Below the pieces are notes generated by a model. It saw only the letters and a list, made by a program, of their open reading frames with translations, was not told the origin of the DNA and made no database searches. This document shows positions 7,511-59,642 of a stretch of DNA of 64,000 bases, piece after piece. The DNA is taken from IMG/VR virus record IMGVR_UViG_3300037512_000782, positions 1 to 64,000 of that record; one strand, 5' to 3'. Both the position numbers and the translations under genes were made by a program. Every line of letters begins with the position of its first letter. Within the stretch, counting starts at the first letter, position 1. The stretch comes from a virus. Taxonomy: Duplodnaviria > Heunggongvirae > Uroviricota > Caudoviricetes.

Positions 7511-8565
7511 TCGTCACCGTTCTCCACGATTTGCTTCGCCTTCTCCACGAAGTCGGCAATCTCCTTCCGCTGTTCGTCCGACAAGTCTGGAATAGGATCG
7601 AAGATTTCTTGGACGAAAGTCGGAATGTAGCCGGGGCCATCTTCGGCCATGACCGCTTGCAGAATCTTCGTGAAGCTGATTTCTTCCTCGTAGTCGATGT
7701 CGTAAATCGTGGTATCGATCGTGAGGAGAGTCTTCTGCGTACAAGCCCACCTCAAGCGCACATTCAAGCGTTTCTTCTTGTCGTACTTTTCGACAAGTTC
7801 GGTGAGCGTCACCTTCTTGGCCACATAGGCTTCCAAGTCTTCCTTGGTCATACGGCGGATGCAAGCGCACAGCTTACGGTTGTACGTATATACGGACGAC
7901 GCTTGGTACGCTTCCGTGTTGACTTGCGGATGGAACAGATGATAGATGTAGCCAGTCGTACGGCAGACCGGGCCTACAAGGCGCTTAATCTTGTACGTAA
8001 ATGCATCATCTTCAGCACCCCATTCATAGAAGTCCTCGTCGAATCCGCCGACAGCTTCCCAAGTGGATTTCAAGTACATGTTGCAAAGGCCAGTCTGCCG
8101 CTGGATATGCACACCATGGAAACAGAACTTCGAGTTGATTGTTCCTCCACCGAGCAGCGTCCTCGTATGGGCCTCGGTCAAGTAATCGACGCCGTCGTAC
8201 GGATAAAGTATTCCGCAGCAGTTCCTACGAAGAAGTTCGGTGCCGTTCTCTATCGACTTCGCGGCTTCGTCGTTCAAATAGCTGTCCGCATCGACCATGA
8301 CGATGACATCCGATTCGGCTGCCTTGATAGCCTCGTTAAGCAATTTCGTCTTGTGGAAGCGAGTTCCGTCGTCGACTTGAACGCGCTTGACGTGCGGATT
8401 GTAGGTTGAAAGTTTTTCCGATTGGCTCGACTCGCCTTGTTCAGCAATGACGATTTCGGCGTCCGGCATTAGTTCTATACACCGATCGATTACAGCGAAT
8501 AGATTGCGCCGTCTGAACGAGTTCTTACCGTCCATGAAAGCCATTACTATCGAAAAATTGGGCAT
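7507..8565 (-). CDS. GT-A glycosyltransferase (GT2/GT7-like)
   Basis: FSIVMAF start, EIVIAEQ, FHKTKLLN, VDAD (DxD), GGFDEDFYEWGAEDD, YHLFH. Confidence 0.9.
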   Translation of the reverse strand: MPNFSIVMAFMDGKNSFRRRNLFAVIDRCIELMPDAEIVIAEQGESSQSEKLSTYNPHVKRVQVDDGTRFHKTKLLNEAIKAAESDVIVMVDADSYLNDEAAKSIENGTELLRRNCCGILYPYDGVDYLTEAHTRTLLGGGTINSKFCFHGVHIQRQTGLCNMYLKSTWEAVGGFDEDFYEWGAEDDAFTYKIKRLVGPVCRTTGYIYHLFHPQVNTEAYQASSVYTYNRKLCACIRRMTKEDLEAYVAKKVTLTELVEKYDKKKRLNVRLRWACTQKTLLTIDTTIYDIDYEEEISFTKILQAVMAEDGPGYIPTFVQEIFDPIPDLSDEQRKEIADFVEKAKQIVENGDE

Positions 8566-8579
8566 ATACAGCTCTTTTG

Positions 8580-8586
8580 ATAAACT
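8580..8586 (+). promoter_or_regulatory. ATAAACT putative late promoter (terminase); representative of about 16 intergenic copies
   Basis: Same heptamer lies shortly upstream of many structural genes on both strands; resembles T4 late TATAAATA. Confidence 0.7.
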
Positions 8587-8628
8587 CTATATAGAAATAT
8601 AGCAAAAATAATTTCAAAAAGGACTTAA

Positions 8629-11619
8629 ATGCCATTTAACGGAATTACAAACCTTCGTGACGCGAAGGAGTCAGTAAAGCTCAGCCCTAAGCAGCTGAAC
8701 GAGATAAAGAAGTGCGCATTGGATCCTCTCTACTTCATGAATAACTATATGTTCATTAACACGAAAGATAATGGCATGCAGTTATTCAAGACGTGGCCAT
8801 TCCAAGACGAAGCAGTCAAGAGATTCTTAAAATACCGCTTCAACATCAACAAGTGGAGCCGTCAGGTCGGTAAATCTACGATCGTGCGTGGCTTCATCCT
8901 ATGGTACGCAATGTTCCACAGCGACCAGCTCGTGGCCATGCTCGCAAACAAGTTGGCATTGGCCAAGGAACAGCTGCAGTTGCTCCGTGACTCATACGTG
9001 GCGCTGCCATTCTGGCTTCAACCCGGCGTGAAGCTATGGAACAAGATGAGTATTCAGTTCTCGAACAATACTCGTATCCTAGTGGCCGCAACGACTCCGG
9101 ACGGCGTCCGTGGTTTCTCGCCCAACCTACTTTACTTGGACGAATTTGCGTTCTTGAGAAACGGATTGGCCGACGACTTCATGGCTTCCGTGTTCCCGTC
9201 AATTTCTTCCGGTAAGAAGACCCGCGTTATCATCACCAGCTGTGTCACCAAGGATACCATGGTATTCACCCCAGATGGCATTAAAACGGTCGAAGACTTC
9301 ATCATCGATGACGGACGTGTTCTAGGATACGAAGTCCCAGAATACCAAGTATTGGGCCGATATGGCATGAACCGAGGGCATATAATGCACAACGACGGTG
9401 CGGCCAAGGAAACCAGAGTCATTTCAACTCGGTATTCCGAAGTCGAAACCTCATTGATGCACAAGTTCTGGACCTGCCGCGACGGCGTCTATCAGATCCG
9501 TCGCGCACACGAGCTGAAGGTCGGCGACTACGTAATGATCAAGTACGGCATGAACTGCTGGGGAGACGACAAGATTGACTTCGACGACAGCCAATCGAAA
9601 CCCAGATATCCACTTGGTAAAATCAATGAAATATCCGAAGAATTAGCATATTTCTTTGGGTTATACATAGCTGAAGGCTGTGCAATGCACACTCCAGCGC
9701 ATCATTATGTCATTATAACATGTGGTGACGATATTCTAAATGACCTAAATTCGATTGGCGTACAATTTAAAAAACTTGACAAATTTCATTATAGAGTTGA
9801 CCGCAAATCTATATGTATGCTATTGGAATGTGTCGGTTTTGATTTAACTAGACATGCAAATCGCAAGGTTATTCCAGACCGTTTAATGCGGATGTCTAAA
9901 CGAAATGTCGCCGCCATGATTCGAGGCATGTTTGACGGAGACGGATGCTCAACAAAAAAACGTAAGCGTCTATCCTACGCATCAACGTCCAAACGGCTTA
10001 TTGATCAGTTGCGCGTTCTTTTAGCAAACTTTGGTATTTTAAGCAATTTGTATCATAAATACACCAAACCCACCAAGCGAGTTAAAGTTTCTAGTGAAGT
10101 ATGGAATCTTGAAATAAATCAGCAAGATATGGTTGATTTATTCTTCACTGAAATTGGGTTCGGACTGAAACGGAAATCAGATACATACTTCACGCAAGAC
10201 CAGCATAAGAAACGTCCTAGCCGATATGACTATATTCCGTTTGCCGCACCGGAAATTCGCCGTTTAAAGAAAGAAAAGGTGCTAACAAACAAGGAATTCA
10301 AGCTCACTGGCGGTATCTGCGACAAGCACGACATACATTTAAACCGTAAACTGGTGCTTGAAATCAAGTCCAAACTTCCAGAGGAAGTCTGGTCTAAGTA
10401 TGACGTGTTCAAGAACGCCGAACCGGACTGCGTATGGACACCTATTACCGAAATTACAAAGTCATTCAATAAAGTGTACGACTTCTCACTGAACGACGAT
10501 AACTATAACGGTTATGGAGAGACTGAATGGTCGCATTCAGTTGTACATAATTTATTAGTTTGTCAGAACACGCCACAAGGACTTAACCACTTCTACCGCA
10601 TGTGGGAAGACGCCGTCGACGAGAACACGGCTTCCTACCACGACTTGACTTCTCGCTACGTCCGTTCAGTCGTGAAGTGGAACGAAGTGCCCGGTCGTGA
10701 TGCCCAGTGGGGTATCGATGAAATGGCTCGTATCGGCGAACAGAAGTTCAGACAAGAATACGAGTGCGAATTCATCGGTTCTGCAGTGACACTTATCGAC
10801 TATAAGATCTTGCAGAAACTGAAGCCGGACGAACCGCTCAAGATGGCCAACACGCCGCCGGACTTCCAGATGCGAATGTTCCAGAAGCCGATTATCCGTC
10901 AGAAGATGGAATTGAACGGCTGGACTTACATCGCGTCAATCGATACTGGCTACGGTATCCGTAAGGACTATCACGTTCTGCAGATTCTTCTTGCAAAGAG
11001 CAACATCGACCTCGAACAAGTTTTCGTCATGTCGTCCAATACGGTGACTATCGAAGACTTCTGCGCATATTCCTACCTTGTACTCAAAGGATATGGATTC
11101 CCGCCGCTTACTATCGAATACAACGGCCCTGGCGCTCGTACGCTAGGTATCATGTTCAACAACTTGCAGTACGAGAACCTTGTCCACTACGACAACAAGC
11201 TTCGCGGAATGTGGGCTACCGACACCATCAAGCAAACCGCCGTCATGCTTCTGAAGCTGTACGTCCAGCGTTTCTACTGCAAACTGCACGACGAGGCGAC
11301 AATCAACGAACTCATGTCCTTCACGACGACGACAGAATCCGGACGTAAGTGGGGCGCTACTGGCGGAAACCACGACGACCACGTGACTTCGCTATACTGG
11401 TGCATCTACTACGCAGCATCGCCGATGTTCGAGGGCGGCAACGTCGAGGAAGTCGACTTCCTCAAGGGTCTCGAACTGGCCTTCACGGCAATCGGAAATA
11501 CTGGCGAGGAGACCAACCGTGCGCTAGAGTTCGTCCAAGACCAGATTGCACAGCGAGAACAGCTTGCAATAGGCCGTCTGCAGCAACAGCAGCAAGAACA
11601 AGCCGAGCAAATTGTATAA
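8629..11619 (+). CDS. terminase large subunit (T4 gp17-like) containing an intein
   Basis: Walker A SRQVGKST, Walker B LLYLDEFAF, coupling motif IITS/TPQGLNHFY split by the intein, FRQEYECEF, nuclease SIDTGYG and HDD. Confidence 0.95.
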   Translation: MPFNGITNLRDAKESVKLSPKQLNEIKKCALDPLYFMNNYMFINTKDNGMQLFKTWPFQDEAVKRFLKYRFNINKWSRQVGKSTIVRGFILWYAMFHSDQLVAMLANKLALAKEQLQLLRDSYVALPFWLQPGVKLWNKMSIQFSNNTRILVAATTPDGVRGFSPNLLYLDEFAFLRNGLADDFMASVFPSISSGKKTRVIITSCVTKDTMVFTPDGIKTVEDFIIDDGRVLGYEVPEYQVLGRYGMNRGHIMHNDGAAKETRVISTRYSEVETSLMHKFWTCRDGVYQIRRAHELKVGDYVMIKYGMNCWGDDKIDFDDSQSKPRYPLGKINEISEELAYFFGLYIAEGCAMHTPAHHYVIITCGDDILNDLNSIGVQFKKLDKFHYRVDRKSICMLLECVGFDLTRHANRKVIPDRLMRMSKRNVAAMIRGMFDGDGCSTKKRKRLSYASTSKRLIDQLRVLLANFGILSNLYHKYTKPTKRVKVSSEVWNLEINQQDMVDLFFTEIGFGLKRKSDTYFTQDQHKKRPSRYDYIPFAAPEIRRLKKEKVLTNKEFKLTGGICDKHDIHLNRKLVLEIKSKLPEEVWSKYDVFKNAEPDCVWTPITEITKSFNKVYDFSLNDDNYNGYGETEWSHSVVHNLLVCQNTPQGLNHFYRMWEDAVDENTASYHDLTSRYVRSVVKWNEVPGRDAQWGIDEMARIGEQKFRQEYECEFIGSAVTLIDYKILQKLKPDEPLKMANTPPDFQMRMFQKPIIRQKMELNGWTYIASIDTGYGIRKDYHVLQILLAKSNIDLEQVFVMSSNTVTIEDFCAYSYLVLKGYGFPPLTIEYNGPGARTLGIMFNNLQYENLVHYDNKLRGMWATDTIKQTAVMLLKLYVQRFYCKLHDEATINELMSFTTTTESGRKWGATGGNHDDHVTSLYWCIYYAASPMFEGGNVEEVDFLKGLELAFTAIGNTGEETNRALEFVQDQIAQREQLAIGRLQQQQQEQAEQIV
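9241..10569 (+). mobile_element. intein with LAGLIDADG homing endonuclease (443 aa)
   Basis: Begins CVTKDT; block B TSLMHKF; LAYFFGLYIAEG and IRGMFDGDG; block F VYDFSL; ends CQN followed by T; removal restores IITSTPQG; core is visibly AT-rich. Confidence 0.93.
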
Positions 11620-25807: not shown

Positions 25808-26968
25808 ATGTTTCAACGCGCCTACAACGTCAGACTGTATCCTAGCAAGCAGCAAGAAGTCTTGCTATGTAAAACTTTCGGCTGCTGCCGTAAGGTATAC
25901 AACTGCATGTTGGAAGCAAAGATAAAGTCGTATGAGGCAACCGGAACGATGTGTCGGTCTAAGCCGACAGATTTCTATGCCGAGTTTCCTTTCTTGAAGG
26001 AAGTCGACGCACAAGCGTTGACTTCCGAGAAGATTAACTTGCAAGCTGCGTTCAAGAACTTCTTCGCTCGAAAGGCCGACGGATTCGGCTTTCCGCAGTT
26101 CAAGTCGAAACATAAAGACAAGGATTCGTATACCAGTTATACAACCAATCACAATATTCGAGTAGAAGGCAAGAAACTCCGCCTACCGAAGGTAGGATTA
26201 GTTTCCTTCCGCAACTACGAAGATATCGACTGGTCTGCAAGGGACATTAAACACGTGACAGTGACACGGTCACGTGCCGGAAAGTACTATGCGTCGATCC
26301 TAGTCGAGGAAGCTGTGCCGAAAGCACTGCCGATGTCCGAATCAGAAATCGGAATCGACCTCGGCATTAAAGACTTCTGCGTTACCAGCGACTGCGAAGC
26401 CGTCGCGAACCCTCAGTTCTTCAAGGAAGCCGAAAATCGCATCGCTGGCCTTCAGCAAGCTTTCGCCAAGAAGCAGAAAGGTTCAAAAAGACGCGAGGCG
26501 TTGCGCTTGCGCATAGCTCGCGAACATGAAAAAGTTGCTAACCGAAGGAAGGATTTCCTTGACAAGCTGTCTACAAGACTGATCCGCGAGAACCAAACGG
26601 TTGTAGTCGAAGATTTGGACGTGCGCGAGGTCGCCGAAGGCGACCACGCGAAGTCCGAGCATGATACAGCGTGGAGGATGTTCCTGAACAAACTACAGTA
26701 CAAGGCTGAATGGTACGGACGAACCATTGTCCGAGTCGGGCGATGGTTCCCCTCAACTCAACTTTGTCATCGATGTAGTTACAGGAATATGTTGACCAAG
26801 GACTTAAACGTAAGGTCGTGGACATGTCCGCATTGCGGCACATCCCACGACCGCGACGTCAATGCCGCCATCAACATTCTTAATGAAGGTAAAAGATTAA
26901 TCGCCGCAGGGACTGCGGTTAAAGGCGCGGGAAACAACGATACGCAACGCGAAATTCACCGTATTTAG
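25808..26968 (+). CDS. tnpB: RNA-guided endonuclease TnpB (solo, no tnpA)
   Basis: AYNVRLYP HTH; RuvC motifs GIDLG, VEDL, DRDVNAAINI intact; CHRC/CPHC zinc finger. Confidence 0.96.
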   Translation: MFQRAYNVRLYPSKQQEVLLCKTFGCCRKVYNCMLEAKIKSYEATGTMCRSKPTDFYAEFPFLKEVDAQALTSEKINLQAAFKNFFARKADGFGFPQFKSKHKDKDSYTSYTTNHNIRVEGKKLRLPKVGLVSFRNYEDIDWSARDIKHVTVTRSRAGKYYASILVEEAVPKALPMSESEIGIDLGIKDFCVTSDCEAVANPQFFKEAENRIAGLQQAFAKKQKGSKRREALRLRIAREHEKVANRRKDFLDKLSTRLIRENQTVVVEDLDVREVAEGDHAKSEHDTAWRMFLNKLQYKAEWYGRTIVRVGRWFPSTQLCHRCSYRNMLTKDLNVRSWTCPHCGTSHDRDVNAAINILNEGKRLIAAGTAVKGAGNNDTQREIHRI

Positions 26969-46774: not shown

Positions 46775-46951
46775 CCGTTCCTTTACCTTTTCAACTTCCT
46801 TTCCCAAGTTAAGCTCTGGTTCGACATACTTGTCGACGCCGTCCCTCAGCATACTCACGTTGATTCCAGCGTTGATGAAGCTGACGGCGGTATCCTCGTC
46901 ACAGCCAAAGCTCTTCATGACGAGGTCGATATCACTTCTTTCGACGGACAT
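46736..46951 (-). CDS. small hypothetical protein
   Basis: GGAAGG RBS; overlaps the gp62-like stop. Confidence 0.6.
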   Translation of the reverse strand: MSVERSDIDLVMKSFGCDEDTAVSFINAGINVSMLRDGVDKYVEPELNLGKEVEKVKERLAETVGEFQQNS

Positions 46952-47363
46952 TCTTCTTTCCTTCCGGCAGCTTGCCGTTTACCTTGTATTCATACGCTTC
47001 GTTAATCAGCTCTGGGTCGATTTCCTTGTTGCGGATCATCGAGTCCGCTGACGAGGCGGACGTTTCGTAGACGGCCATGACTTGTTCACGGAGCTTGTTC
47101 GTGGCGGCAATCTCGGTAGGGAATGCGCGAAGATACCCGGTGTTGAGCTTGCAGCCGTTGAACGCCTCCATCACCTTTGCGCGAACCTTTGTTGTAAGTC
47201 GGCTGAACTCGACCGTGTTCAGCGCAAGCAGCGACTTGTAGATGGACGGAGTCATGGACAAGGAGTAAATCGCCGCATAGGTGTCATGCGAGGCGATATC
47301 CTCCATCGTCATCTTTCGACCAGCTATGCGGTCTTGAATGAATTTTTCGTGATCAAACGGCAT
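46932..47363 (-). CDS. clamp loader small subunit (gp62-like)
   Basis: Directly follows gp44; size; EQVMAVYETSASSA C-terminal pattern. Confidence 0.6.
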   Translation of the reverse strand: MPFDHEKFIQDRIAGRKMTMEDIASHDTYAAIYSLSMTPSIYKSLLALNTVEFSRLTTKVRAKVMEAFNGCKLNTGYLRAFPTEIAATNKLREQVMAVYETSASSADSMIRNKEIDPELINEAYEYKVNGKLPEGKKNVRRKK

Positions 47364-48396
47364 ACTTCCAATCCGGTGCGTACTTCTTGAGAATCTGCAT
47401 TACGTTGAGCAAGAAGCCCCACAAGGCATACTCTTGGTCAACTTGGTGGTTAGACTGGTACATCGCATTGGAAAGAGCGACGCCGAACGGAATGAGCACT
47501 TCGTCTGGAAGGCGGTCGATTGCGTAATCGCCGAATGAACGGTACACGCCTTGGCAGAACGTGATGTTCTTCGATATAAAGTAGCGGAGTTCGCGCACCT
47601 TGAAGTTGACCGTCATGTCGAAAAGAGTTTCCGTATTGGACGGAGCCATGCTAGGCATCGTACCGATAATGCTGCCGCCATTTTCGAGGAACGAACGGTG
47701 CATAGTGGCGATCATCAAGCGGATGTCTGGGTAGCACTCGTTGATGATGTTGGCGACGAGGAACTTGTCCACCGTGCCGCCCTTGGCATCGCACTCGCCC
47801 TTGGCAATCTTCATCAAGCGCTTGTGGAGACGAGTCTTGTATTCCTTGAGTTCAGCCTCGGCGTCTTCCTCGTGTTCAAACTTTGCGCCGAAGTCGATAG
47901 CCATACAGCGAGACTGGATTGCTGGCGGAATGCGCCAGAGTTCGTTACACGTCAAGATGAATCGTAACGTGCTGGAAGTATCCTCGATTTCGGACTGAAG
48001 AACGCGGTAGAAGTCGGCTGGCTTGTTCGGCTTGTCGGCTTCGTCGATGATAACGAACTTCGGCTGTCCATCCGGAGAGCTGTACTTAGAAAATTCCTCA
48101 ATCTGGTCAATGATTTCGGAGTCACGCTTACCGAATAGGAACATCGACTGTGCGCCGATGATCTTCGGAATGGCCTTTGCTATAGAAGTCTTGCCAGTGC
48201 CCGGTGCGCCAGAGTGAAGGATGTAGTTGCCGAACGAATTCATTTCGATAGCGTTCTTGAACAAGTTCTCCACGTTGCGGTGGAGGATGATGCTATCCAA
48301 GTCAGTACCACGGTACTTCTCTTCCCAAGGAAGGTTGCTGTTGATGGCCGACTGCATATCGGCGGTAGCATTCTGCTGGTCAATTACGTTGAACAT
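47353..48396 (-). CDS. clamp loader large subunit (gp44/RFC-like)
   Basis: WEEKYR, GAPGTGKTS, IIDEAD, FILTCN, IQSRC, YPDIR. Confidence 0.95.
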   Translation of the reverse strand: MFNVIDQQNATADMQSAINSNLPWEEKYRGTDLDSIILHRNVENLFKNAIEMNSFGNYILHSGAPGTGKTSIAKAIPKIIGAQSMFLFGKRDSEIIDQIEEFSKYSSPDGQPKFVIIDEADKPNKPADFYRVLQSEIEDTSSTLRFILTCNELWRIPPAIQSRCMAIDFGAKFEHEEDAEAELKEYKTRLHKRLMKIAKGECDAKGGTVDKFLVANIINECYPDIRLMIATMHRSFLENGGSIIGTMPSMAPSNTETLFDMTVNFKVRELRYFISKNITFCQGVYRSFGDYAIDRLPDEVLIPFGVALSNAMYQSNHQVDQEYALWGFLLNVMQILKKYAPDWKYAV

Positions 48397-48754: not shown

Positions 48755-51712
48755 CTAGAACATCGACAGCATGAAATCGCTCTCGTCGTATTCGAGGCGT
48801 TCATCCCAGCCGACGGCTTTGAATAGACGGCCAAGCACTTGAGCCACGCAAACCTTCCAGTGTTCTTCCCAGTCTGGGTGGAAGATTTCGAGCAGACGAG
48901 GCGGACATTTATCGCCAGTATAGCAGATGATGCTAACGCCAAACAGACGGTCGGCCTTCTTAATGAATCTGATCTTCGATCCAGCGTACACTGGTTCGTA
49001 AGGGAACTTCGAGAGTTCCGGGTCATTCTGGATAAGGTAATTCCACACAGCACCAGCCTTGACGCGCCAGTCAATCTTCTTCTTTTCTTCTGCTGGCATG
49101 CTGTCAAGAACTTCGAGCGGAGGCGGATCATTCTTGACGCCGCACGGACATGCGATGTAGCTGAAATTCTCCTTCTGCACGGAATCGAAGAATTCCTTCT
49201 TGATTTCGAGCAAGCGGTTACGCACCGTCGCCTTGTCCATGGTATCCATCATCAAGTCCACCATGTCCATCATACGATCCTTACCGAACAAAGCTGTAGA
49301 GCTTCGTACAAGTTCAAGACCAGTGATGGCGTATTCTGGCTTGACCGCAAGAGTACCCTTGACCCACTGCTTGTTATCGTCCTTGTGACCCAAGTCGAGG
49401 TAGACGATGTCTTCCATGCTTTCCACCAAGCAGATGTACTTCTTCTTGGCGGTCACGATAGCCTTGTGGATGCACTTCTCTCGCTTTAAGAACAACTCGT
49501 TCGTCAAGTAGCCCCACTGGTTAGCGTAACTGAGCATGTACTCGTCAAGTTTCTCTTCCAAGATGCAAGCATCAAGGATTCGGCAGAAGTCGGTAAGTCT
49601 GTAGCGGTTGTAGATGATGCGGTAATCGCCCGTCATGAAGATACCGTCGGCGAAGGTAATCTGCGCCTTCGTCCATCCAGTCTTTTCATCTGGTGTACGC
49701 ATTTCCGCGCCAGTCCAATTTTCCTTACCGTACTTCGTGCAGAGGCGGTTGAACGCCTTCTTGGAGTCGAGTTCGTGGTCGTTGTCGAACGAATAGCGTT
49801 CCACGATTTCGTGCTTGTCGAATACGATGACCTCGGTGCCAGTTCCTTGCTTCAGTCGGAACTGTTCATAGATGTCGCCGAACTTCACGAAGAAGGAGTC
49901 AGTATCGCCGTGGCTCATGCGCTTGTAATTCACTTCGCCTTCGGCATCGGTGAACGTACCGACAAGTTCTGGGTCGATATCCGGCTCGTATCCGAAGACC
50001 TTCTTGAATACTGGGTCGCTATGGATATCGTTGTTGATGTATTCAGAAAGACGTGCAATCGTGTACTTGATGAGGCGCTGGCCGTAAGCGGTAATGGAGG
50101 CGGCATTGTCCACGTCGTACAGAGCAAATAGTTCAGAACCCATCAAGCCATACAGAGAGTTTCCAAGCACCTTGTACACTTTCTGCATCATATCATAGAC
50201 GCCAGCCATTTCCTTGTCGCCGTTCTTCTTGGCCTTCTTCATCTGCTTCTTCAAGTTGGAACGACCGTCGAACAGAAGCCTTGTAACTTCTGGCACGACG
50301 CCGACCTTGTCCTTGCGGAAGTAGACTTGGTAGCGACCGTTATGATCCCACGGAGACTTAATAAGATTCTTCTTTTCTTCTTCTGTAAGCACATAGTCGA
50401 TCGGGAACGTGACCTTCATCTCCGGTGACGTGTTGAACGTCATCATGATAGAAGGATACAGCGATCGATAGTCATAAGATACTAGGTATTCCTTGTAGCC
50501 CGGAACAGAGTACACGAAAGCGCCAGGGAACACTTCCTTGTGCTGCTGGCGATACGGCGGGAATGTACGGTTCGTGTGGTGAAGATGATCCAGCATGAAG
50601 CCAGTAAGCATCTTCTTGGACGAGAACACAGACGAGAACGGAACACGAGCAGCGGCTGCAGAAGTAACCGCGAGGCGGAACATCTGAGCCTTAATTTCAA
50701 TCTTTACAAGGAGCTTGACGTCTTGGAAGTTATACAAGACATAGTCTTCCCAGTACTTCTGCCAAGACAGATAGCCGTCTGGAAGCGGAGCCTTGCTCTC
50801 ACCAACAATCTTTTTACCAATATAATCGAGTTTGTATGAAGCCTCTTCAGAGAAGGTGTACTTCTTGTAGAGTTCAAGGAAGTCAATAACTTCAGTACCG
50901 TTAATTACCAACTCGTTCTTGGCATTCAAGTATGCGCGTTTGTTCTTACCGCGCATTCTGGATAGTAAGTCGAGCGAAATACGGTCTTTCGGCGGAAGCT
51001 TTTCGTTAACTTGCTTCAGTCGATTGCAAATGTAAACAGTATCGAATCCGAAGTTCCAGCCAGACAAAATGTCGAGGTCGCTGGCACCAATCTGGAATAG
51101 TAACTTTGTAAGGAGGTCGGCTTCATCCGTACAGAGGATGTACTCGCCATTGTTTTCCTTTAGGAACTGCTTGCCCTTTTCGGAAATGTCCTTGGCGACG
51201 CCGTAGGTATAATACTTGTCTTCTTTGGATACGTAGAACGTAACGACATTGATAGGATACTTCGCTTCGGTCGGTAGAGAGAATCGGCCAGTCGTGGCGT
51301 TTTCAATATCGAGGAAGCCGAGGTTGATATCCTTCATGTCTGGGTGAATGACACCCGTATCGGCATAATGCTTTTGTAAAAATCGGCCACGTGGGTCAAT
51401 GTCGATTTCCGCAAGGTGATTAGTCGGCCCAGCATGGTTCTGCTTGATGGCCTTCTCAACTTCGAATGCGGACACTCCGTTGGCTGGGGGAACTTCTACC
51501 TTGTATACATCCCTATCCCAGATGTCCTTCATGCCGCACGGCTTTGCGCCGTATTCACCTTGCTTGTCGGTATAGAACTCATGCACCGATGGAACGGCAT
51601 CCATCGTGCCGTCCGTGTACCAAACGTACATGCGGTCGTTCTCCGTATCATGGAAGATCGAGCGCCACATAGGACGTTTTGGTTTTGCTTCTTCTGGTGT
51701 AATCTGAGCCAT
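48755..51712 (-). CDS. family B DNA polymerase (gp43-like)
   Basis: Exonuclease motifs LDIE, SGWNFGFD, YNFQDV; polymerase motifs DYRSLYPS, KVLGNSLYG, GDTDS, KKKY, GLE.VRSST. Confidence 0.97.
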   Translation of the reverse strand: MAQITPEEAKPKRPMWRSIFHDTENDRMYVWYTDGTMDAVPSVHEFYTDKQGEYGAKPCGMKDIWDRDVYKVEVPPANGVSAFEVEKAIKQNHAGPTNHLAEIDIDPRGRFLQKHYADTGVIHPDMKDINLGFLDIENATTGRFSLPTEAKYPINVVTFYVSKEDKYYTYGVAKDISEKGKQFLKENNGEYILCTDEADLLTKLLFQIGASDLDILSGWNFGFDTVYICNRLKQVNEKLPPKDRISLDLLSRMRGKNKRAYLNAKNELVINGTEVIDFLELYKKYTFSEEASYKLDYIGKKIVGESKAPLPDGYLSWQKYWEDYVLYNFQDVKLLVKIEIKAQMFRLAVTSAAAARVPFSSVFSSKKMLTGFMLDHLHHTNRTFPPYRQQHKEVFPGAFVYSVPGYKEYLVSYDYRSLYPSIMMTFNTSPEMKVTFPIDYVLTEEEKKNLIKSPWDHNGRYQVYFRKDKVGVVPEVTRLLFDGRSNLKKQMKKAKKNGDKEMAGVYDMMQKVYKVLGNSLYGLMGSELFALYDVDNAASITAYGQRLIKYTIARLSEYINNDIHSDPVFKKVFGYEPDIDPELVGTFTDAEGEVNYKRMSHGDTDSFFVKFGDIYEQFRLKQGTGTEVIVFDKHEIVERYSFDNDHELDSKKAFNRLCTKYGKENWTGAEMRTPDEKTGWTKAQITFADGIFMTGDYRIIYNRYRLTDFCRILDACILEEKLDEYMLSYANQWGYLTNELFLKREKCIHKAIVTAKKKYICLVESMEDIVYLDLGHKDDNKQWVKGTLAVKPEYAITGLELVRSSTALFGKDRMMDMVDLMMDTMDKATVRNRLLEIKKEFFDSVQKENFSYIACPCGVKNDPPPLEVLDSMPAEEKKKIDWRVKAGAVWNYLIQNDPELSKFPYEPVYAGSKIRFIKKADRLFGVSIICYTGDKCPPRLLEIFHPDWEEHWKVCVAQVLGRLFKAVGWDERLEYDESDFMLSMF

Positions 51713-52538: not shown

Positions 52539-53489
52539 ATGGACGATACAAAACCATCAATTATTGACAAGTTCTTAGACCAGAAGACGACCGAGTTCGA
52601 CAGCGAACAGCCGCCTAACATCCAGCACCTTGCCAAGATATCCGGCAAGTCTCCCAATGCCGTTAATGTCGAGTACGATCAAGAAGTGCGCAAGCTGGAA
52701 AAAGAGCAGATGCAGAATCCACCAGCCATGACCAACAATACAGACTTGGCGGCGATGGCTCGCGTCAAAGCCGTAGACAATCTGGAAGACCAGTACAAGT
52801 CCGGACAGACCGAAGAATCTGACGAAGTGACCTATGACGAGCTCGTAGGGGACATTAACACCGACTTCGGCCAAGCCCCAGCGGCAAACGAATTCAGCAT
52901 GTTCACGCCCGGTGAGCAAGATACAGCAAACCAGATGTTCGCCGATATCGACAACATCAATGCGACAAACCCATACGAAGAAGACGGATTCGACGACGGA
53001 TTCGAAGAACCAGAAACGGCGCTCGATTCGATGGACGGTCTTGCAGATATCGCAGAAAACGAAGACGGATCCACTACAGAAACTATGCCGAACGACAGCG
53101 CACCAGAGACACCAGCGGATGATTTTGATGCCGAAATTCCGGACACCCCAAAGCTCGAAGGTATTGACGACGTAATCAAGAAATTCGGTAAGTACGCGGC
53201 AATGGGTACGTTAGCATTCAACGTAGCAAACGCGCATGCCGCACCAAGCGACTTCCGACACGAGACGACGTCGCCAGACGGCAAGTCGACTACGGTATTA
53301 GCCAGCAATACACACAAAAATCTTTGGCAAAACCAAGACTACGAAGACCGAGTCATGGAAATATTCAAGCAACTCAAACAGCAGCGCATTGATGCTGGTA
53401 AGACGTTCAACGAACAAATTCTCTACAACAAGGCGCAGATGTACGCGCAAGCGGAGTTGACCACGGGAAAGCCGTGGAATGGCAAATAA
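52539..53489 (+). CDS. acidic hypothetical protein (probably late)
   Basis: ATAAACT at 52507; AAGGA RBS. Confidence 0.8.
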   Translation: MDDTKPSIIDKFLDQKTTEFDSEQPPNIQHLAKISGKSPNAVNVEYDQEVRKLEKEQMQNPPAMTNNTDLAAMARVKAVDNLEDQYKSGQTEESDEVTYDELVGDINTDFGQAPAANEFSMFTPGEQDTANQMFADIDNINATNPYEEDGFDDGFEEPETALDSMDGLADIAENEDGSTTETMPNDSAPETPADDFDAEIPDTPKLEGIDDVIKKFGKYAAMGTLAFNVANAHAAPSDFRHETTSPDGKSTTVLASNTHKNLWQNQDYEDRVMEIFKQLKQQRIDAGKTFNEQILYNKAQMYAQAELTTGKPWNGK

Positions 53490-53490
53490 G

Positions 53491-53516
53491 AAAAGGCGGT
53501 CGATTGACCGCCTTTC
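53491..53516. terminator. bidirectional terminator
   Basis: AAAAGGCGGTC GATT GACCGCCTTTC. Confidence 0.75.
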
Positions 53517-53532
53517 TCATTACGCTGAACGA

Positions 53533-54816
53533 TTAAGCGTTGTAGGTACACTTCCTCAAGAACATACCGTTACCATAAGTCATCATGGTACGGCCATTCT
53601 CAAATCCGTGCTGAAGCACGAGGTCGGGGCAACCAGAATTGCGCACCATCATCGTGAACACGTCAAGCGGAAGGACGATTTCGAAGCCCGGCTTTTCGAC
53701 TTGGCAGTCACCAACGCTGATGTTGACGTGAATGCGTTCGTCTTCCAGACCTTCGATACCGATAAGGCCATCTTCGATACCATAGATGCGAGCCTTTCCA
53801 GTCGGATTGACATGGTTGATTTCGAAGTACATACCGATGGCAGCCGCGATAGATTCAGCCTTGATGTGGAACACACGCTCAAGTCCATCGTTGTTGTATG
53901 TCTTCAAGGTGGCATCACCGATGTCAGTTTCGAGAGTAGCGAACATACCAGAAATACGGAGCTTCTTGTTCTTAGTATCGAGATCGATAATGACATTGAG
54001 CGACAAGTCAAGGTCAAGCGCATTCACGAGAGGAATGGCCTTAAAGATCTTGGCTGGAATGCTGACGCTGAAGTCAGACGTATTGTCATACTGCTTTGCG
54101 CCTTCGCTGTTGTCGTTCACCATCACAGTATTCTGCATGGCGGTCGCAATGGTGCAATGTTCATCACCAGTTCGGTAAGACACACGACCATTCTTGCGGT
54201 GGATTTCGACAGTTTCGAAATTGTACACGCTGTCGAGAATCGTGTTAAAGGACATCTGATCCATTGCGATACGGACGTTGAAGTCGTCATCGCTGGCCAG
54301 CTTCACTTCAAACGGTTCGCACGGATTGAATCCGATTTCGAGTTCGAAACCGCCGATACCATCATTGAAGAAAGCACCTAGATAAAGCTTGCCTTCGCTG
54401 ACCCACAGAGCTGCAGTCTTTTCAGCAGTGCCCATCAAGTGACGCACAGCGTTGCAGAGGTCGTAAATCTTGATGAACACTGGGCCATCAAGTTCTACGG
54501 AAACCGGAAGAGCATCCATCTTCACATGGATACCGCTATCGGTGTCAATATGGAGCCAGATCTTGTTGTCCTTCGGATCCACCTTGGTTTCGAGCCTTGC
54601 GACGGTTTCCGTATCGAGCAGAGACTGTTCGATAAGGGCAAGACCTTGTCCGAAACGGCCTTGCAGCACGAACATGGTCAACGGCAAATCTTCGCCAGTG
54701 GACACTTCCTCGGCAGCATCTTCGGTCGTCGGAGCCAACTTGTTGAAGTCTTCAAGCATGCCGTGAAGCGAGCTTGCGCGAACTTTCTCGTCTTCTGTTA
54801 TTTTGAGTTCACTCAT
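53533..54816 (-). CDS. divergent DnaN (beta clamp)-like protein
   Basis: Three-domain periodicity with DnaN-like segments: TDSGIHV..ELDGPVFI..LCNAVRHL; IAMDQMSFNTILDSV; TGDEH; FSVSIPAK; FEIVLPLDVFTMMVRNSGCPDLVL. Confidence 0.6.
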   Translation of the reverse strand: MSELKITEDEKVRASSLHGMLEDFNKLAPTTEDAAEEVSTGEDLPLTMFVLQGRFGQGLALIEQSLLDTETVARLETKVDPKDNKIWLHIDTDSGIHVKMDALPVSVELDGPVFIKIYDLCNAVRHLMGTAEKTAALWVSEGKLYLGAFFNDGIGGFELEIGFNPCEPFEVKLASDDDFNVRIAMDQMSFNTILDSVYNFETVEIHRKNGRVSYRTGDEHCTIATAMQNTVMVNDNSEGAKQYDNTSDFSVSIPAKIFKAIPLVNALDLDLSLNVIIDLDTKNKKLRISGMFATLETDIGDATLKTYNNDGLERVFHIKAESIAAAIGMYFEINHVNPTGKARIYGIEDGLIGIEGLEDERIHVNISVGDCQVEKPGFEIVLPLDVFTMMVRNSGCPDLVLQHGFENGRTMMTYGNGMFLRKCTYNA

Positions 54817-54893
54817 AGTATGTTTCCTTTTGAATTTTAAATTACATTAAAAAGGCCGCATCGCTGCGGCCTCTTGAAATTGTGTCGTTTCGA

Positions 54894-56453
54894 CTAGATG
54901 TTGGTCAGCGAGGCAGCAGACTCTTGGGTCTTGTCAGCTGGTTGCTGGGAAGGGCCGACATCGGCACCCAGCTCATCTTCTTCAGTGCCGAACGCGAAGT
55001 CTTCGCCTTCTGGCGGAAGGTCGACTTGTTCACCGCCAACTTGATCCATCATCGCGCCGAACGAACCATCGTTCATGAAGTCGTTCGACGCGGTAAGAGC
55101 GCTAGGATCAGCCGGAGCATCCAAGTCAAATCCGTCGGTGGAGGCAGCAGCACCACCACTACCGAATGCGGTTTCACCCGGCAATGACAAGTCAGAAGTG
55201 CTCATGTCAGACGGAGACGCAGTCGGAGCATTCATTGCATCTGGGAAGATTTCAGTGAGCTTGTCGTTAAACTCGGTAAGCGAAACATCGGCAGTCTGCG
55301 GGTCGTCAAGATAATCCAAGAATTCTTGAATCTTTTCTTCAGGAACTTGGTTGCGCTCCAGTTCTTGGAACTCCTTGAAGAACGCATTGAACACATCCTT
55401 CGGATCCTCGTTCTTCATCGGCTTCGTACCGTTATAGATTTCAGACGGACTCAGCGAGAAACCACGTCCAGTCTGGCCGCCTTCCTTGGCATCTTGAGAC
55501 ATCTTCTGAGAAAGAATCTTGCCCAATGTGTCAAGAGCTTGATGGCTGACGCTAGACATGTTGTCGAAGATTGCGCTCTTCATGTCGACAAGAGCATTCT
55601 TGTCATCATCGCCGCCATTGACATCGCCAGCGCCAATGGCGTTGTTTTCCATGCCAGGGATGTTCTCTGGAGGAGCGATGTCTTGTTCTTCGCCGTCCAT
55701 CGCGAACGCTTCTGCGCCCGGTGCTTGTTCGCCATCTTCAAGCAAAGTAACAGCGTTACACATATTCAACAGCTGCGCAAGGCCGCTGTCCACGCATTCG
55801 TGATAAATGGAACTGTCGGTGGCCATCCATGAATTGCTGGCGTCCTCGGTTCCGTTGCTAAGGCCATTCAATGTCTGCATCGTATCGAGATCGTTTCCGA
55901 CGTCGTAAGTGTTGTTGGAGTCGATAAGTTCGTCGCAAGTCTTCAAGATTGTATAGCCGAAGTTGTTGACGAACTGAGGACTCTGCAAGGATACTTCGTA
56001 AAGGTTCGACAGACCAGTGTCCGAAGTCAGCTTCACGGAGATATTTTCGTTTTCGTTCGGATAGAACAGCTCGACAAGCATATCATGGTCACGACGGTTG
56101 ATGATGAACTTGCAGTGAGTTTCCTTCATGTCGATACTTGCAAGGTTCATGCGCATGCCACGGTAGGCGGTATTGGTCACGGCTTCCGTAAAGACCTTCT
56201 TGTAGAGGTCGCGGGTCGTAATCAAGTTCTTGCCATATACCAATGGCTTGTTCTGGTCGTAGGTACGGTGATCCCAGTCGTCGCCATCTTGGGGCTTCTT
56301 TACTGGGTCTGGAATCTGCTTTGTCAGCATCTTAATCACTTTCGTCTTTGAAGGAACTATAGGGCCGCTCTGCGTGGTCACGTAAACATAGTCCTTCATT
56401 GCCTTGAGAAGCGTATTCTTGTCGATCTGGGTTCCCATGGAAATATCCTGCAT
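54894..56453 (-). CDS. large protein with a very acidic C-terminal half (probably late/virion)
   Basis: ATAAACT on the minus strand at 56467; start re-called at MQDISMG; terminator at 54849-54875. Confidence 0.8.
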   Translation of the reverse strand: MQDISMGTQIDKNTLLKAMKDYVYVTTQSGPIVPSKTKVIKMLTKQIPDPVKKPQDGDDWDHRTYDQNKPLVYGKNLITTRDLYKKVFTEAVTNTAYRGMRMNLASIDMKETHCKFIINRRDHDMLVELFYPNENENISVKLTSDTGLSNLYEVSLQSPQFVNNFGYTILKTCDELIDSNNTYDVGNDLDTMQTLNGLSNGTEDASNSWMATDSSIYHECVDSGLAQLLNMCNAVTLLEDGEQAPGAEAFAMDGEEQDIAPPENIPGMENNAIGAGDVNGGDDDKNALVDMKSAIFDNMSSVSHQALDTLGKILSQKMSQDAKEGGQTGRGFSLSPSEIYNGTKPMKNEDPKDVFNAFFKEFQELERNQVPEEKIQEFLDYLDDPQTADVSLTEFNDKLTEIFPDAMNAPTASPSDMSTSDLSLPGETAFGSGGAAASTDGFDLDAPADPSALTASNDFMNDGSFGAMMDQVGGEQVDLPPEGEDFAFGTEEDELGADVGPSQQPADKTQESAASLTNI

Positions 56454-56531
56454 GTGCTTGCTTTTCAGTTTATACAAATGCAAAAATGCGGCGAGCGCTG
56501 ACTCACCGCATTTTGTACCCATGACATAAAT

Positions 56532-57422
56532 TTACTGAACCAAGTCGAACTGGGAATAAGCGCCAGCGGAGCATTCAGCCGCACCCATCCAGAGAGTCAT
56601 CGGCTTTTCTGGATCGGCACCAGGGATAAGCGAAGTTGCCTTGAGGGACATCTGCTCGACACCCTTGAACGATGCGTAGGTGATGTCGATGTCGTATTCT
56701 CCGCCGATGCCCTTCATGTAGTTGAAGAGCTGGACTGGGAACACGGTGACGGTGCCCGGTCGGAAAATCTTGTGGACAAGCTGCGTATCGATGCCGCGAG
56801 TGCATGTCGACGGTACGCAGTAAGTAATCTGCTGAGACATCTTGCCCTTGATGTAGAGCTTGATGCCGCCGTCGTCGATACGGAGAGTCACGAACTCGCA
56901 CGTCGGAACCGCACGGAGCTTCGTAACAAAGTCCTTGACCATATCCTCGGAGAAGTGCATTTCACCGACCTTCATCATAGGGTCGTTATCCCTAGTGAAC
57001 GGAATGTGAGAATGGCCTTCCTTGAAACAGCTGGGGTCAGCAGTCGGCGTACGGCAAGTGATACCGCCACCAGAAAACTTGATGTACTCGTAACGGCGAC
57101 CAGTAATCGACGTGTCTACGGACAGTTCAGCCGTGCCGCGCTTGGGGAAGTTGGCCAGTTCCGCATACTTCACAAATTCATTCAGCGAGAAGATGTTGAT
57201 GCGGTTGGTATCGAAATCCAAGTCTGCATCCGATGCAGCAAGGTGTGTCATCATCGCCATGTCTGGAACGCTGATGTGGTTTCCCGGAATACGGCCCTTC
57301 ACGTTACCCTTGAACATGATGACGCATCCAGTCTTTGTAATAGAACTGATGTTCTTCAAGATCTTGTAGAACGGTTCGCTAAAACGAATGCCTACCGCTG
57401 GTTTTTCAATTTCTTCAGCCAT
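56532..57422 (-). CDS. sliding clamp (gp45-like)
   Basis: FSEPFYKILKNISSI, INIFSLNEFV, TADPSC match gp45 landmarks (L.KNF..IN, IYDLN.FL, ADPS); promoter TTGAAT-17-TATATT at 57442-57470. Confidence 0.75.
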   Translation of the reverse strand: MAEEIEKPAVGIRFSEPFYKILKNISSITKTGCVIMFKGNVKGRIPGNHISVPDMAMMTHLAASDADLDFDTNRINIFSLNEFVKYAELANFPKRGTAELSVDTSITGRRYEYIKFSGGGITCRTPTADPSCFKEGHSHIPFTRDNDPMMKVGEMHFSEDMVKDFVTKLRAVPTCEFVTLRIDDGGIKLYIKGKMSQQITYCVPSTCTRGIDTQLVHKIFRPGTVTVFPVQLFNYMKGIGGEYDIDITYASFKGVEQMSLKATSLIPGADPEKPMTLWMGAAECSAGAYSQFDLVQ

Positions 57423-57449
57423 GTTTAAACCTCGGCTATCAAATATAGT

Positions 57450-59642
57450 CTAAATGTATTTTGGATTCAAATCGCCCTTCGTGACCACTTTTTTGCCGAT
57501 TTCGACGAATTTCGGCTCAAGCTGGTTCCACTCAAGCGGCGTAAACGGAGCATTGACATCGACACACCAGCTGCAGTCAACCTCGATCTGCTGCATGCGA
57601 GCCTCCAGACGGTGCATCATCATGGAAACGACGTATGGTACGCAGCCCCTACCGTCACCAAACTTATACAGCTTGCCGAAGTTCTTCAAGATGGGAAGGT
57701 AGCCGCCACGGATAGCGACGAACGGCCCGTCCAGAACGGCAACGTCATGCGAACCAGTGACAGACACGGTTCCAGCAACACGGCGGTTGTACATTCCGTC
57801 CTTTGTCGAATATTCGCTATACATGCCATAGGTATTAGGGCAGCGCATCCAAGTGCCATCCGGCAAGAAATTCTCATAGCCGAACGGAGCGACAGCACCT
57901 ACATCGCTAGGGACGGCTTCGAGCTTTTGTATGAACGACGGATCATATATCAGCGAAGACGCATGGGCAAGTACAATCCAAGAAGGCGGAACCTTCGGAT
58001 TCACCTTGACAATCTTTTCAGCGACACGAGCGATGTTGAGGAATATCGACATCTGCGGATTGCTCTTCTTGCACATCCTTACTGGCTGGTCACTAGCCAA
58101 GTAGACAAGTTCATCACGACTGGAGGCATACTTCTTGTATGGAACCTTGACGTCGGATCCCTTGCGCCTATAAAGAATGGTAATCACGCACGGCGTCTTA
58201 CTGTGCTGCAAGATCGTGTTATTGTCAAGACGGATTGTCTCGACCGGGCGGATACCCAGAGCCTTGCGAAGCTGGTTCTTCTCGCCTTCTTCCTTGGCGC
58301 GTTCCGCATATACGGTACGCCTACGGTCTTCTGCGCGAAGTTCGTTTTCGTACAAGGCAGCCTTGATGGCGACTTCGAATTCGTCCATCACCGGGGTCTC
58401 CCATACAAACTGCTTGGACGTCTTCTTACGAGTCTTCGCAGCAGCCACTCCAGCCTTGTGACGCTTGTAATAGGCAGCACGACGGTTCGTCTTGTTTAGC
58501 TTGTCCAGATGTTTCTTCTGGAATTCGGAGAGTTCCATCTTCGGATCGACATTGACTCCAGAAGCGACAATGGCGTCAACATCCTCTTGAACCCAGCCCC
58601 ACATCGGATACATCGGCCAGCCCTTGGCTTGTACCTCGGCACAATGGGCATTGTACTCGTCAACCGTCATCACGCAATAGTCCTTCGACTTCTGAATGTG
58701 CATCAGCTTGGGAGGAGCAACGACGCGGCACTTACCGGATATCAAGTTGTCAATCCAGTAATTGCTCTTGCCGAACTTTGTACGGATAGCGAAACGGTTG
58801 TAATACGGCTTGCCTTCACAATAGAAATAACGGCGGTTGATCTGGTCGCATAGCTCATCGAGTTCGGACTTCTTGAACAAATTCCTCGTGCGAGCGCCAA
58901 CCTTGACTTGCTCTGGATGCAGAAGCTTCATGAATATGAACTTCGTTAACGTGCGACGAGAAATCTTCATGTATACGCAAGCCATGCCAGTAGTCAGCAC
59001 GTCTGGAAGAGGCTCCTTCTTTATCAAACGGCTACCTTTCTTTACGGTCTCGTTGATAGAGTCGTTGACATACTGGATGATGTTCTCACGAGTCATCCAC
59101 TTGTATCGCTTGCGGCCAGTCGTACTGTGAATCCAGAACGCGATGTTCGCCTTGCCAGCTCGGCAAGCTGCTCGGAGCTTTCCCGGTGTCGTACCGATGA
59201 ACGTAGCGCTGTCCTTGACATTTAGAGTCTTGGGAAGGAACTTGAAATTCTTGGACGGCACGTAGTTCTTGAGGAACCAGTCGTAATCACGGAAGTAGAC
59301 GAACTTGCCGTAATCGTCGGCTGGCTGTTCCTTGATAATGCCCTTTCTGACCAGTCGCAGATACGTCATCGGACTTACATCCAAGTCAGCGACGATTTCA
59401 GCCGGACGGATCTTTGCGTAAGGGTGCGTAGTGCAAGGAGGTTTCAGACCATAGGCTGAAAGCTTCTTCAGACACGCATCGTAACGGTATTTCTTCTGGC
59501 CTTGATAATTGACTATGTAAGGTATCCCATCAAAGAAACCCATTCCCTTCAAGTCAGAAACCGGACGGTCAAGATACTGCGCAATCTTCAACGGCTGCAC
59601 ATATTCATCTATACCCTTCTGTTTCAACGCACCAAGAGCCAT
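57450..59642 (-). CDS. tandem MerR/Xis-like HTH protein fused to a degenerate GT-A glycosyltransferase-like domain
   Basis: Four to five HTH-like units in the N-terminal ~300 aa; C-terminal WIVLAHAS..VGAVAPFG..VAVLDGPFVAIR; TAATG-coupled to primase. Confidence 0.6.
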   Translation of the reverse strand: MALGALKQKGIDEYVQPLKIAQYLDRPVSDLKGMGFFDGIPYIVNYQGQKKYRYDACLKKLSAYGLKPPCTTHPYAKIRPAEIVADLDVSPMTYLRLVRKGIIKEQPADDYGKFVYFRDYDWFLKNYVPSKNFKFLPKTLNVKDSATFIGTTPGKLRAACRAGKANIAFWIHSTTGRKRYKWMTRENIIQYVNDSINETVKKGSRLIKKEPLPDVLTTGMACVYMKISRRTLTKFIFMKLLHPEQVKVGARTRNLFKKSELDELCDQINRRYFYCEGKPYYNRFAIRTKFGKSNYWIDNLISGKCRVVAPPKLMHIQKSKDYCVMTVDEYNAHCAEVQAKGWPMYPMWGWVQEDVDAIVASGVNVDPKMELSEFQKKHLDKLNKTNRRAAYYKRHKAGVAAAKTRKKTSKQFVWETPVMDEFEVAIKAALYENELRAEDRRRTVYAERAKEEGEKNQLRKALGIRPVETIRLDNNTILQHSKTPCVITILYRRKGSDVKVPYKKYASSRDELVYLASDQPVRMCKKSNPQMSIFLNIARVAEKIVKVNPKVPPSWIVLAHASSLIYDPSFIQKLEAVPSDVGAVAPFGYENFLPDGTWMRCPNTYGMYSEYSTKDGMYNRRVAGTVSVTGSHDVAVLDGPFVAIRGGYLPILKNFGKLYKFGDGRGCVPYVVSMMMHRLEARMQQIEVDCSWCVDVNAPFTPLEWNQLEPKFVEIGKKVVTKGDLNPKYI

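Follow-up and report, generated by a model that had tools for sequence, protein, structure and literature searches.

Sliding clamps are usually described as having one architecture per replication system: the beta dimer works with DNA polymerase III (Pol III) in bacteria, and the PCNA/gp45 trimer works with family B polymerases. Phage T4 gets by with a single clamp, gp45, which it uses in replication as well as in late transcription. The DNA analysed here, 64,000 nucleotides from a T4-like jumbo phage (the window; bases 1-64000 of the 348,092-bp IMG/VR virus record IMGVR_UViG_3300037512_000782, CheckV completeness 91%), raises the question of what a second clamp, of the other architecture, would do in such a phage. 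An earlier note, made from the letters of this sequence, had claimed that the window encodes a gp45-like clamp and a divergent DnaN-like protein. Both open reading frames (ORFs) are present on the minus strand and are called CL3 and CL2 here:

53533-54816 (-): CL3 (P0001), 427 amino acids (aa), three-domain beta-clamp fold, from the ORF, the AlphaFold2 (AF2) model, Foldseek, VIA and hhalign
56532-57422 (-): CL2 (P0002), 296 aa, two-domain gp45/PCNA-type clamp protomer, from phrog_223, hhalign, the AF2 model and VIA

CL3 has a clamp fold and is collinear with DnaN over its full length; it is conserved with fixed synteny, evolves under purifying selection and occupies an autonomous cassette. Our preferred reading, to which we give an even chance, is that CL3 acts as an additional, specialised clamp or docking platform of the phage beside the gp45-type replicative clamp.

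CL3 has the fold of a bacterial beta clamp

The AF2 model of CL3 was built on an alignment of 11 family members and reached a predicted local distance difference test score (pLDDT) of 82.4 and a predicted template modelling score (pTM) of 0.76. It contains six beta-alpha-beta3 units, that is, three clamp domains (residues 46-427), after a disordered N-terminus. The earlier note had staked its proposal on a structure prediction giving a DNA clamp, and the predicted fold is clearly that of a three-domain clamp. The top 50 Foldseek matches in the PDB were all DnaN, with E about 1e-16 and template modelling scores (target) of 0.70-0.75. VIA comparisons with DnaN gave Z 26-27 and a root-mean-square deviation (rmsd) of 3.4-4.1 Å over about 340 residues, with model residues 45-427 matching E. 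coli beta 1-363, and the best viral structural matches, in BFVD, were phage-encoded DnaNs. The identity to any DnaN is 8-14%. The extra acidic N-terminus described by the earlier note was also found: residues 1-45 include 12 D/E against 4 K/R and have pLDDT below 50. This extension is confined to subclades whose proteins have 400 aa or more, and it contains a conserved amphipathic helix, SL..M[LI].D[FC].

Sequence profiles were consistent with the structural matches. When the CL3 family was compared by hhalign with 11 DnaNs (E. coli DnaN and ten phage-borne DnaNs), P0001 51-404 aligned collinearly to beta 6-341 at E 3e-6, prob 88% and 11% identity, a marginal match. The same comparison with 24 CL3 family members gave E 1.3e-4 and prob 54%, and the reversed-column control gave E 0.07. 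A profile of the 11 CL3 members searched against PDB sequences returned one match above noise, the DnaN 2awa, at E 0.14 and collinear. The three-domain collinearity with beta, seen by eye in the earlier note, was thus recovered by both hhalign and VIA. Ordinary searches did not find this relationship: the Pfam DnaN models (PF00712, PF02767, PF02768) matched none of 11 family members and NCBIfam (dnaN) none of four at E<=1, CL3 had no match in PHROG, and P0001 had none by phmmer against the PDB or by tblastn against the INPHARED phages. The CL3 profile showed no similarity to CL2 or T4 gp45 by hhalign. Because of the collinear DnaN profile match and the lack of similarity to CL2 and T4 gp45, CL3 is best seen, on profile and model, as an extremely diverged offshoot of the DnaN-type three-domain clamps and not as a triplicated gp45. 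By these searches it is outside the ordinary sequence definition of the DnaN family.

Pocket and subunit interface of CL3

We take the peptide pocket of E. coli DnaN to consist of T172, G174, H175, R176, L177, P242, N320, Y323 and C-terminal residues. The earlier note had singled out this pocket as a point to check, and here CL3 departs from DnaN: on the approximate hhalign map only T172 is kept (T225), G174-H175-R176-L177 is replaced by M-Q-N-T, N320 by P383 and Y323 by V386. The replacements are largely conserved within the CL3 family. The most conserved block of CL3, E204-G217, in which R207 and R215 never vary, and the equally invariant R421-K422 at the C-terminus map to the DNA-contact loop and pocket of beta, and we infer a conserved functional face at E204-G217 and the C-terminal RKC motif.

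The E. coli beta ring is held together by cross-interface salt bridges between residue 74 and E298/E300, R105 and E301/E303, and R103 and E304/D307, around a hydrophobic core formed by I272/L273 (PMC12269063). Residue 74 is printed as L74 in that article and is K in the E. coli sequence. CL3 residues D119, E158 and E160 align to beta K74, R103 and R105 and vary little or not at all among 24 sequences; the near-invariant R361 aligns to Q299, beside the acidic E298-E304 strand of beta. The interface of CL3 looks preserved but inverted in polarity (charge-swapped), which would favour CL3-CL3 pairing and disfavour pairing with host beta.

The clamp pair is conserved in a clade of jumbo phages

A database-wide profile search recovered about 46 clusters of the CL3 family at 90% identity, all on jumbo-phage contigs of up to 479 kb. 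The proteins have 357-430 aa, save one 175-aa fragment, and none of the 46 database homologues carries a precomputed Pfam domain or an informative name. Scanning viral contigs with P0028, P0031 and P0023 gave no matches.

Nine related IMG/VR loci were compared in their flanking genes, with identities of the family B DNA polymerase (PolB) from 94% to 60%. The gene order gp32-primase-helix-turn-helix (HTH) protein-CL2-acidic protein-CL3-(orf339)-orf212-PolB was kept in all nine, which with the window makes ten loci. The clamp pair is a feature of the clade and not a one-off. Between the most distant clades the identity is 29-31% for CL3, about 30% for CL2 and 60% for PolB. Both clamps are therefore fast-evolving, given their low identity relative to that of PolB, but always retained, as they are present in all relatives examined. 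Pairwise ratios of nonsynonymous to synonymous substitutions (dN/dS), which are rough values because dS is saturated, were 0.07-0.13 for CL3, 0.05-0.10 for CL2 and 0.06-0.17 for gp44, all three being similar. On these ratios CL3 is under purifying selection, and for this and its clade-wide retention the idea of a relic or redundant gene was rejected.

In one relative, L004 (IMGVR_UViG_3300021255_002810), the CL3 cassette at 8150-9457 (terminator, A/T box, gene and terminator) is inverted with respect to every flanking gene; no other relative shows this arrangement. A 300-aa ORF at 53479-54381 (+) in the window, antisense to CL3, was taken as a shadow ORF of the conserved minus-strand gene.

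CL2 is a gp45-type clamp

The claim of a gp45-like clamp at 56532-57422 was confirmed by sequence and structure. CL2 had no match in Pfam and matched phrog_223, 'DNA polymerase processivity factor', at E 1.4e-4 (E 1.2e-5 in the genome-wide scan), weakly but consistently. Its hhalign comparison with T4 gp45 gave E 1.2e-3 and 28% identity over 148 collinear columns that include a shared ADPS motif. The AF2 model (pLDDT 89.7, pTM 0.87) had its best VIA matches in T4 and RB69 gp45 (1czd for T4, 1b77 for RB69, and 6drt), with Z 17.3-17.4 and rmsd 2.6-2.7 Å over 216 of 228 residues, followed in Foldseek and VIA by PCNA, 9-1-1 and the African swine fever virus clamp. The bore is lined by four helices with 7-9 K/R per protomer. 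By sequence and model CL2 is a gp45 orthologue with a two-domain protomer, and the oligomer is presumably a trimer. Its setting is that of a gp45 system, with a gp44-like loader and a PolB with a C-terminal clamp-binding tail encoded nearby.

Residues 288-296 of CL2 (56532-56560 (-)) form a flexible C-terminal tail, [QN][FY]D[LM][VI]x, that stays conserved at identities as low as 44% and is reminiscent of the QL[SD]LF clamp-binding motif of bacteria. In the L005/L006 clade the CL2 tail is ...EELVD, the N-terminal extension of CL3 is absent and the PolB tail is KKVRAFV instead of DFMLSMF. These changes amount to a single co-varying transition and are not statistically meaningful.

The replication module and its surroundings

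Both clamp genes lie in a T4-type replication module on the minus strand that runs through a gp62-like gene, gp44, PolB, a 212-aa ORF, CL3, an acidic protein, CL2, an HTH-array protein, a primase and gp32. Apart from the clamps, the members are:

46932-47363 (-): putative gp62-like small subunit, assigned by position only
47353-48396 (-): gp44-like AAA+ clamp loader, phrog_168 E 3e-46
48755-51712 (-): T4-type PolB, from family matches, with the C-terminus ...YDESDFMLSMF, by tail comparison a gp43-like clamp-binding tail
between PolB and CL3 (-): orf212, the 212-aa ORF
54894-56438 (-): acidic protein, 514 aa, conserved, between both clamp genes
beyond CL2: 733-aa HTH-array protein, DnaG-type primase and gp32

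A genome-wide scan found one copy of each clamp. The DFMLSMF tail of PolB is kept in three subclades. PolB is just 26-30% identical to the polymerases of cultured T4-like phages, and on this ground the phage is a deeply branching T4-like jumbo phage of 348 kb.

The acidic protein starts at the ATG at 56438 (M29 of the ORF) and not at 56522, since its relatives begin at the equivalent Met. Conserved in it are an N-terminal domain and the C-terminal tail ...[SA]L[TS]NI. It also has a long, acidic and disordered stretch, and it had no family, profile, fold or usable atlas match. A 3+2+1 heteromeric ring using the acidic protein or orf212 was considered and dropped, as hhalign comparisons of both with CL2, CL3 and DnaN gave nothing.

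Three further AAA+ proteins are weakly similar to phrog_168, at 4990-6552 (-) in the window and at G000 125910-126353 (+) and G000 314604-315059 (-). They were rejected as a second clamp loader because Pfam sees only generic AAA domains in them. An accessory PolA-like minimal polymerase is encoded at G000 86939-88543; homologues with 35-78% identity were found in all five CL3-bearing relatives searched, including the distant clade. Its C-terminus has a loosely conserved D[QE]xF[IF]xE[ML] segment and no clear clamp-binding tail. A split minimal Pol III alpha of the kind described by Iyer et al. 2021, in phages that lack other Pol III domains (PMC7824862), was also looked for and not found, PF07733 and PF17657 being negative, a search that very divergent forms could escape.

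Expression signals separate the two clamp genes

The intergenic regions around the clamp genes contain the following elements, all recognised from the sequence:

57442-57470 (-): sigma-70-like promoter TTGAAT-17-TATATT of CL2
56509-56482 (-): hairpin terminator after CL2
56474-56467 (-): late-type box TATAAACT upstream of the acidic protein
54871-54849 (-): hairpin terminator of the gene upstream of CL3, GGCCGC-AGCGAT-GCGGCC followed by T5
54849-54839 (-): conserved A/T box TAATGTAATTT, directly after the hairpin and before CL3
54829-54823 (-): CL3 Shine-Dalgarno AAGGAAA
53491-53516 (-): intrinsic terminator downstream of CL3, 11-bp stem and T run, with equivalent hairpins in relatives

By these predicted signals the genes of CL2, the acidic protein and CL3 are separate expression units. 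The CL2 promoter, whose GCTATATT-type -10 element is conserved in relatives, falls in a genome-wide TTGxxx-17-TGCTATATT class; this class resembles host sigma-70 promoters with an extended -10. The box upstream of the acidic protein, the 8-mer TATAAACT, is the most enriched upstream motif of the genome and precedes the terminase and orphan genes. The [G/T]ATAAACT family (for example at window positions 8580, 11616 and 52507 (+) and 56467 (-)) is the most enriched upstream 8-mer family, and GATAAACT lies upstream of genes in 31 of its 38 genomic copies. Because it precedes the terminase and orphan genes, the [G/T]ATAAACT family is a probable late promoter.

The arrangement upstream of CL3, with the same terminator and TAAT[G/A]TAATTT or TGATGTAGTTT, recurs in L002, L004, L005 and L006. 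The TAAT[G/A]TAATTT box has no -35 element and is nearly unique in the genome; an attempt to place CL3 in a promoter class failed. Since it is bounded by terminators, has its own A/T box and is alone inverted in L004, CL3 is, as far as such signals tell, an autonomous cassette with a regulation distinct from that of CL2.

What the second clamp may do

CL2 and CL3 are not redundant. In the preferred reading, CL2 most likely tethers PolB, through the C-terminal DFMLSMF tail of the polymerase, and gp44/62 most likely loads CL2. CL3 most likely assembles head-to-tail into a two-protomer ring, which is inferred from the approximate interface map, or is at least a half-ring platform, and in DNA metabolism it would probably act for phage clients of its own, with its transcription controlled separately. 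Several observations weigh against this reading. All residue-level mapping of CL3 rests on an hhalign map of 11% identity and is approximate. The six bore helices of CL3 have 3-6 K/R and a mean net charge of -1.5, and those of 11 DnaNs have 7-12 K/R and a mean net charge of +3.1, two phage DnaNs being negative as well; clamps that encircle DNA do not usually have a neutral or acidic bore. The genome-wide scan found the gp44-type loader only and no second true clamp loader, no client protein with a matching motif was found, and Pol III alpha (PF07733, PF17657) had no match in the 348-kb genome, where very divergent forms could escape. The interface, the pocket and the bore together suggest that a functional face and an oligomer interface are retained in CL3, that its ligand specificity differs and that its bore is atypical for a ring that slides on DNA.

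The bore also speaks for another reading, in which CL3 keeps the clamp fold without encircling DNA. It would then be an adaptor or a static scaffold, or it would regulate the phage's own clamp system, for example by binding the loader, polymerase tails or CL2 to modulate loading, unloading or polymerase exchange. Besides the non-basic helices, the invariant R207, R215, R421 and K422 lie on strands and loops, off the bore helices, only one loader is recognisable, and the conserved amphipathic helix of the N-terminal extension and the QL[SD]LF-like tail of CL2 would suit such contacts. When 413 ORFs were searched for terminal clamp-binding motifs that they share, only the tails of PolB itself and of CL2 came up. 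CL2 has the sole C-terminal motif of its type, but this is about the number expected by chance, 1.3. Also against this reading, the full half-ring geometry is kept with a confident pTM, the putative interface residues are among the most conserved CL3 columns, and in the distant L005/L006 clade both genes persist without the CL3 extension and the QFDLV-type tail of CL2. We consider this explanation possible, though unlikely. The idea that CL3 is the processivity factor of the accessory PolA-like polymerase, in an auxiliary replication or repair module apart from the PolB/gp45 replisome, draws on the presence of this polymerase in all the CL3-bearing relatives searched and on the remark of Iyer et al. 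2021 (PMC7824862) that T4-like jumbo phages have accessory polymerases beside PolB, whose cooperation they speculated on. However, the co-occurrence is inside one clade and is not independent evidence, the genes are 24-33 kb apart, the polymerase ends without a clear clamp-binding tail and no Pol III alpha-like partner was detected, and we regard this assignment as quite doubtful.

The earlier note had offered three functions for the second clamp: that it recruits or sequesters host clamp-binding proteins, that it jams the host clamp loader, or that replication and transcription roles are split between the clamps. None of the three is demonstrated. The two host-directed functions would make CL3 a DnaN mimic that sequesters host clamp-binding proteins or the loader, or poisons host beta rings, and so shuts off host replication. 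The overall architecture is the same as that of the host clamp, phage targeting of the host clamp is known (for example, Twort Gp168 bound to beta, PDB 7evp), and extra interactions could be made through the acidic N-terminal tail. Yet a mimic is expected to track host DnaN surfaces, and CL3, with no DnaN hidden Markov model match and at most 14% identity to any DnaN, does not keep the pocket signature residues on the hhalign map. Moreover, its inverted interface charges should repel host beta, and throughout the clade its gene lies in the replisome module of the phage itself. A host-directed role is therefore disfavoured, and we think it improbable. A split of labour between the clamps is the most plausible of the three proposals, and no evidence tying CL3 to transcription was found. 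A gp55-like late sigma of 252 aa is encoded outside the window, at G000 118211-118969 (+), with 30% identity to T4 gp55 over residues 37-121; it ends in a lysine-rich basic tail, without the SLDFLY clamp-binding motif of T4.

A more far-reaching reading, which we think unlikely, would give a lineage of T4-like jumbo phages two orthogonal clamp systems. A trimeric gp45-type ring would serve the PolB replisome. The beta-type ring, a dimer whose interface is charge-swapped and whose client pocket is new, would work in another process (the accessory PolA-like polymerase, repair synthesis or synthesis at specific origins, or coupling late transcription to replication), with one gp44/62 loader possibly loading both. 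Such phages would offer a viral counterpart of PCNA and 9-1-1, and they would be the first in which a single loader opens rings of both three and two protomers.

Comparison with known clamp systems

CL3 resembles bacterial DnaN (E. coli beta, 2POL/3Q4J; Rickettsia, 6DM6; T. maritima, 1VPK) in its three-domain half-ring, in aligning end to end and in its core of about 380 aa. It differs in that the pocket is not kept, the interface charges are swapped, the bore is not basic and part of the family has an acidic extension. It is also encoded beside PolB and a loader of the RFC/gp44 type, and neither Pol III alpha nor a gamma/delta complex was detected. Phage-encoded DnaNs, such as those of Arthrobacter, Ralstonia, Mycobacterium, Nodularia and Sinorhizobium phages, are common; they are phage-borne three-domain clamps like CL3 but, unlike it, are recognisable by sequence. 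A tblastn search with E. coli DnaN matched 233 INPHARED records at 22-37% identity; those listed are mostly genomes of about 35-150 kb, and none of them is evidently T4-like.

On the other side of the pair, CL2 is like the T4/RB69 gp45 system (Z 17.4, 16% identity); here too, a gp44-like loader is encoded nearby and PolB ends in a hydrophobic tail. T4 gp45 has 228 aa, and the 296 aa of CL2 are owing to insertions. As a functional analogy only, eukaryotic PCNA and the 9-1-1 checkpoint clamp are two related clamps of one system with different clients. Those clamps, however, both have two-domain protomers and each has a dedicated RFC variant, whereas here the domain arrangements are 2x3 and 3x2 and one loader is seen.

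In the literature, we found no paper on a T4-like phage with both clamp types and no report of a phage-encoded DnaN together with a gp45-type clamp. For the T4-like jumbo phages, the only clamps mentioned in the comparative survey by Iyer et al. 2021 of replication proteins in jumbo phages are those of the PCNA superfamily (PMC7824862). Pseudomonas phage PaBG, which appeared among the BFVD matches, was rejected as a dual-clamp precedent because it has no phrog_223, PF00712 or PF00136 match.

The locus unites both clamp architectures in a conserved replisome module of a virus, where a single loader is recognisable and no Pol III was detected. If CL3 is a working ring, the questions are how a gp44/62-type loader or another factor handles a two-protomer ring, which clients use a completely re-specified beta-type pocket and what giant phages need a further clamp for. 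The family also illustrates, as a natural case, how far a clamp sequence can drift with the fold kept, combining the absence of a family-model match and 8-14% identity with Z 27, and it bears on the annotation of 'hypothetical' genes in jumbo-phage replication modules.

Other features of the window

Elsewhere in the window, genes for tail sheath, tail tube, terminase, NrdD, RtcB and an IS605-type transposase were found. The terminase large subunit (996 aa, 8629-11619 (+)) matches terminases in residues 2-212 only and has helicase-/endonuclease-like matches at 330-520, and NrdD (2193-4766 (-)) matches in two blocks, 3-426 and 501-856; both may contain inserted elements, for example an intein or a homing endonuclease. 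The IS605/TnpB-type transposase gene at 25808-26968 (+) matches phrog_506 at E 2e-117 and has a GATAAACT box upstream.

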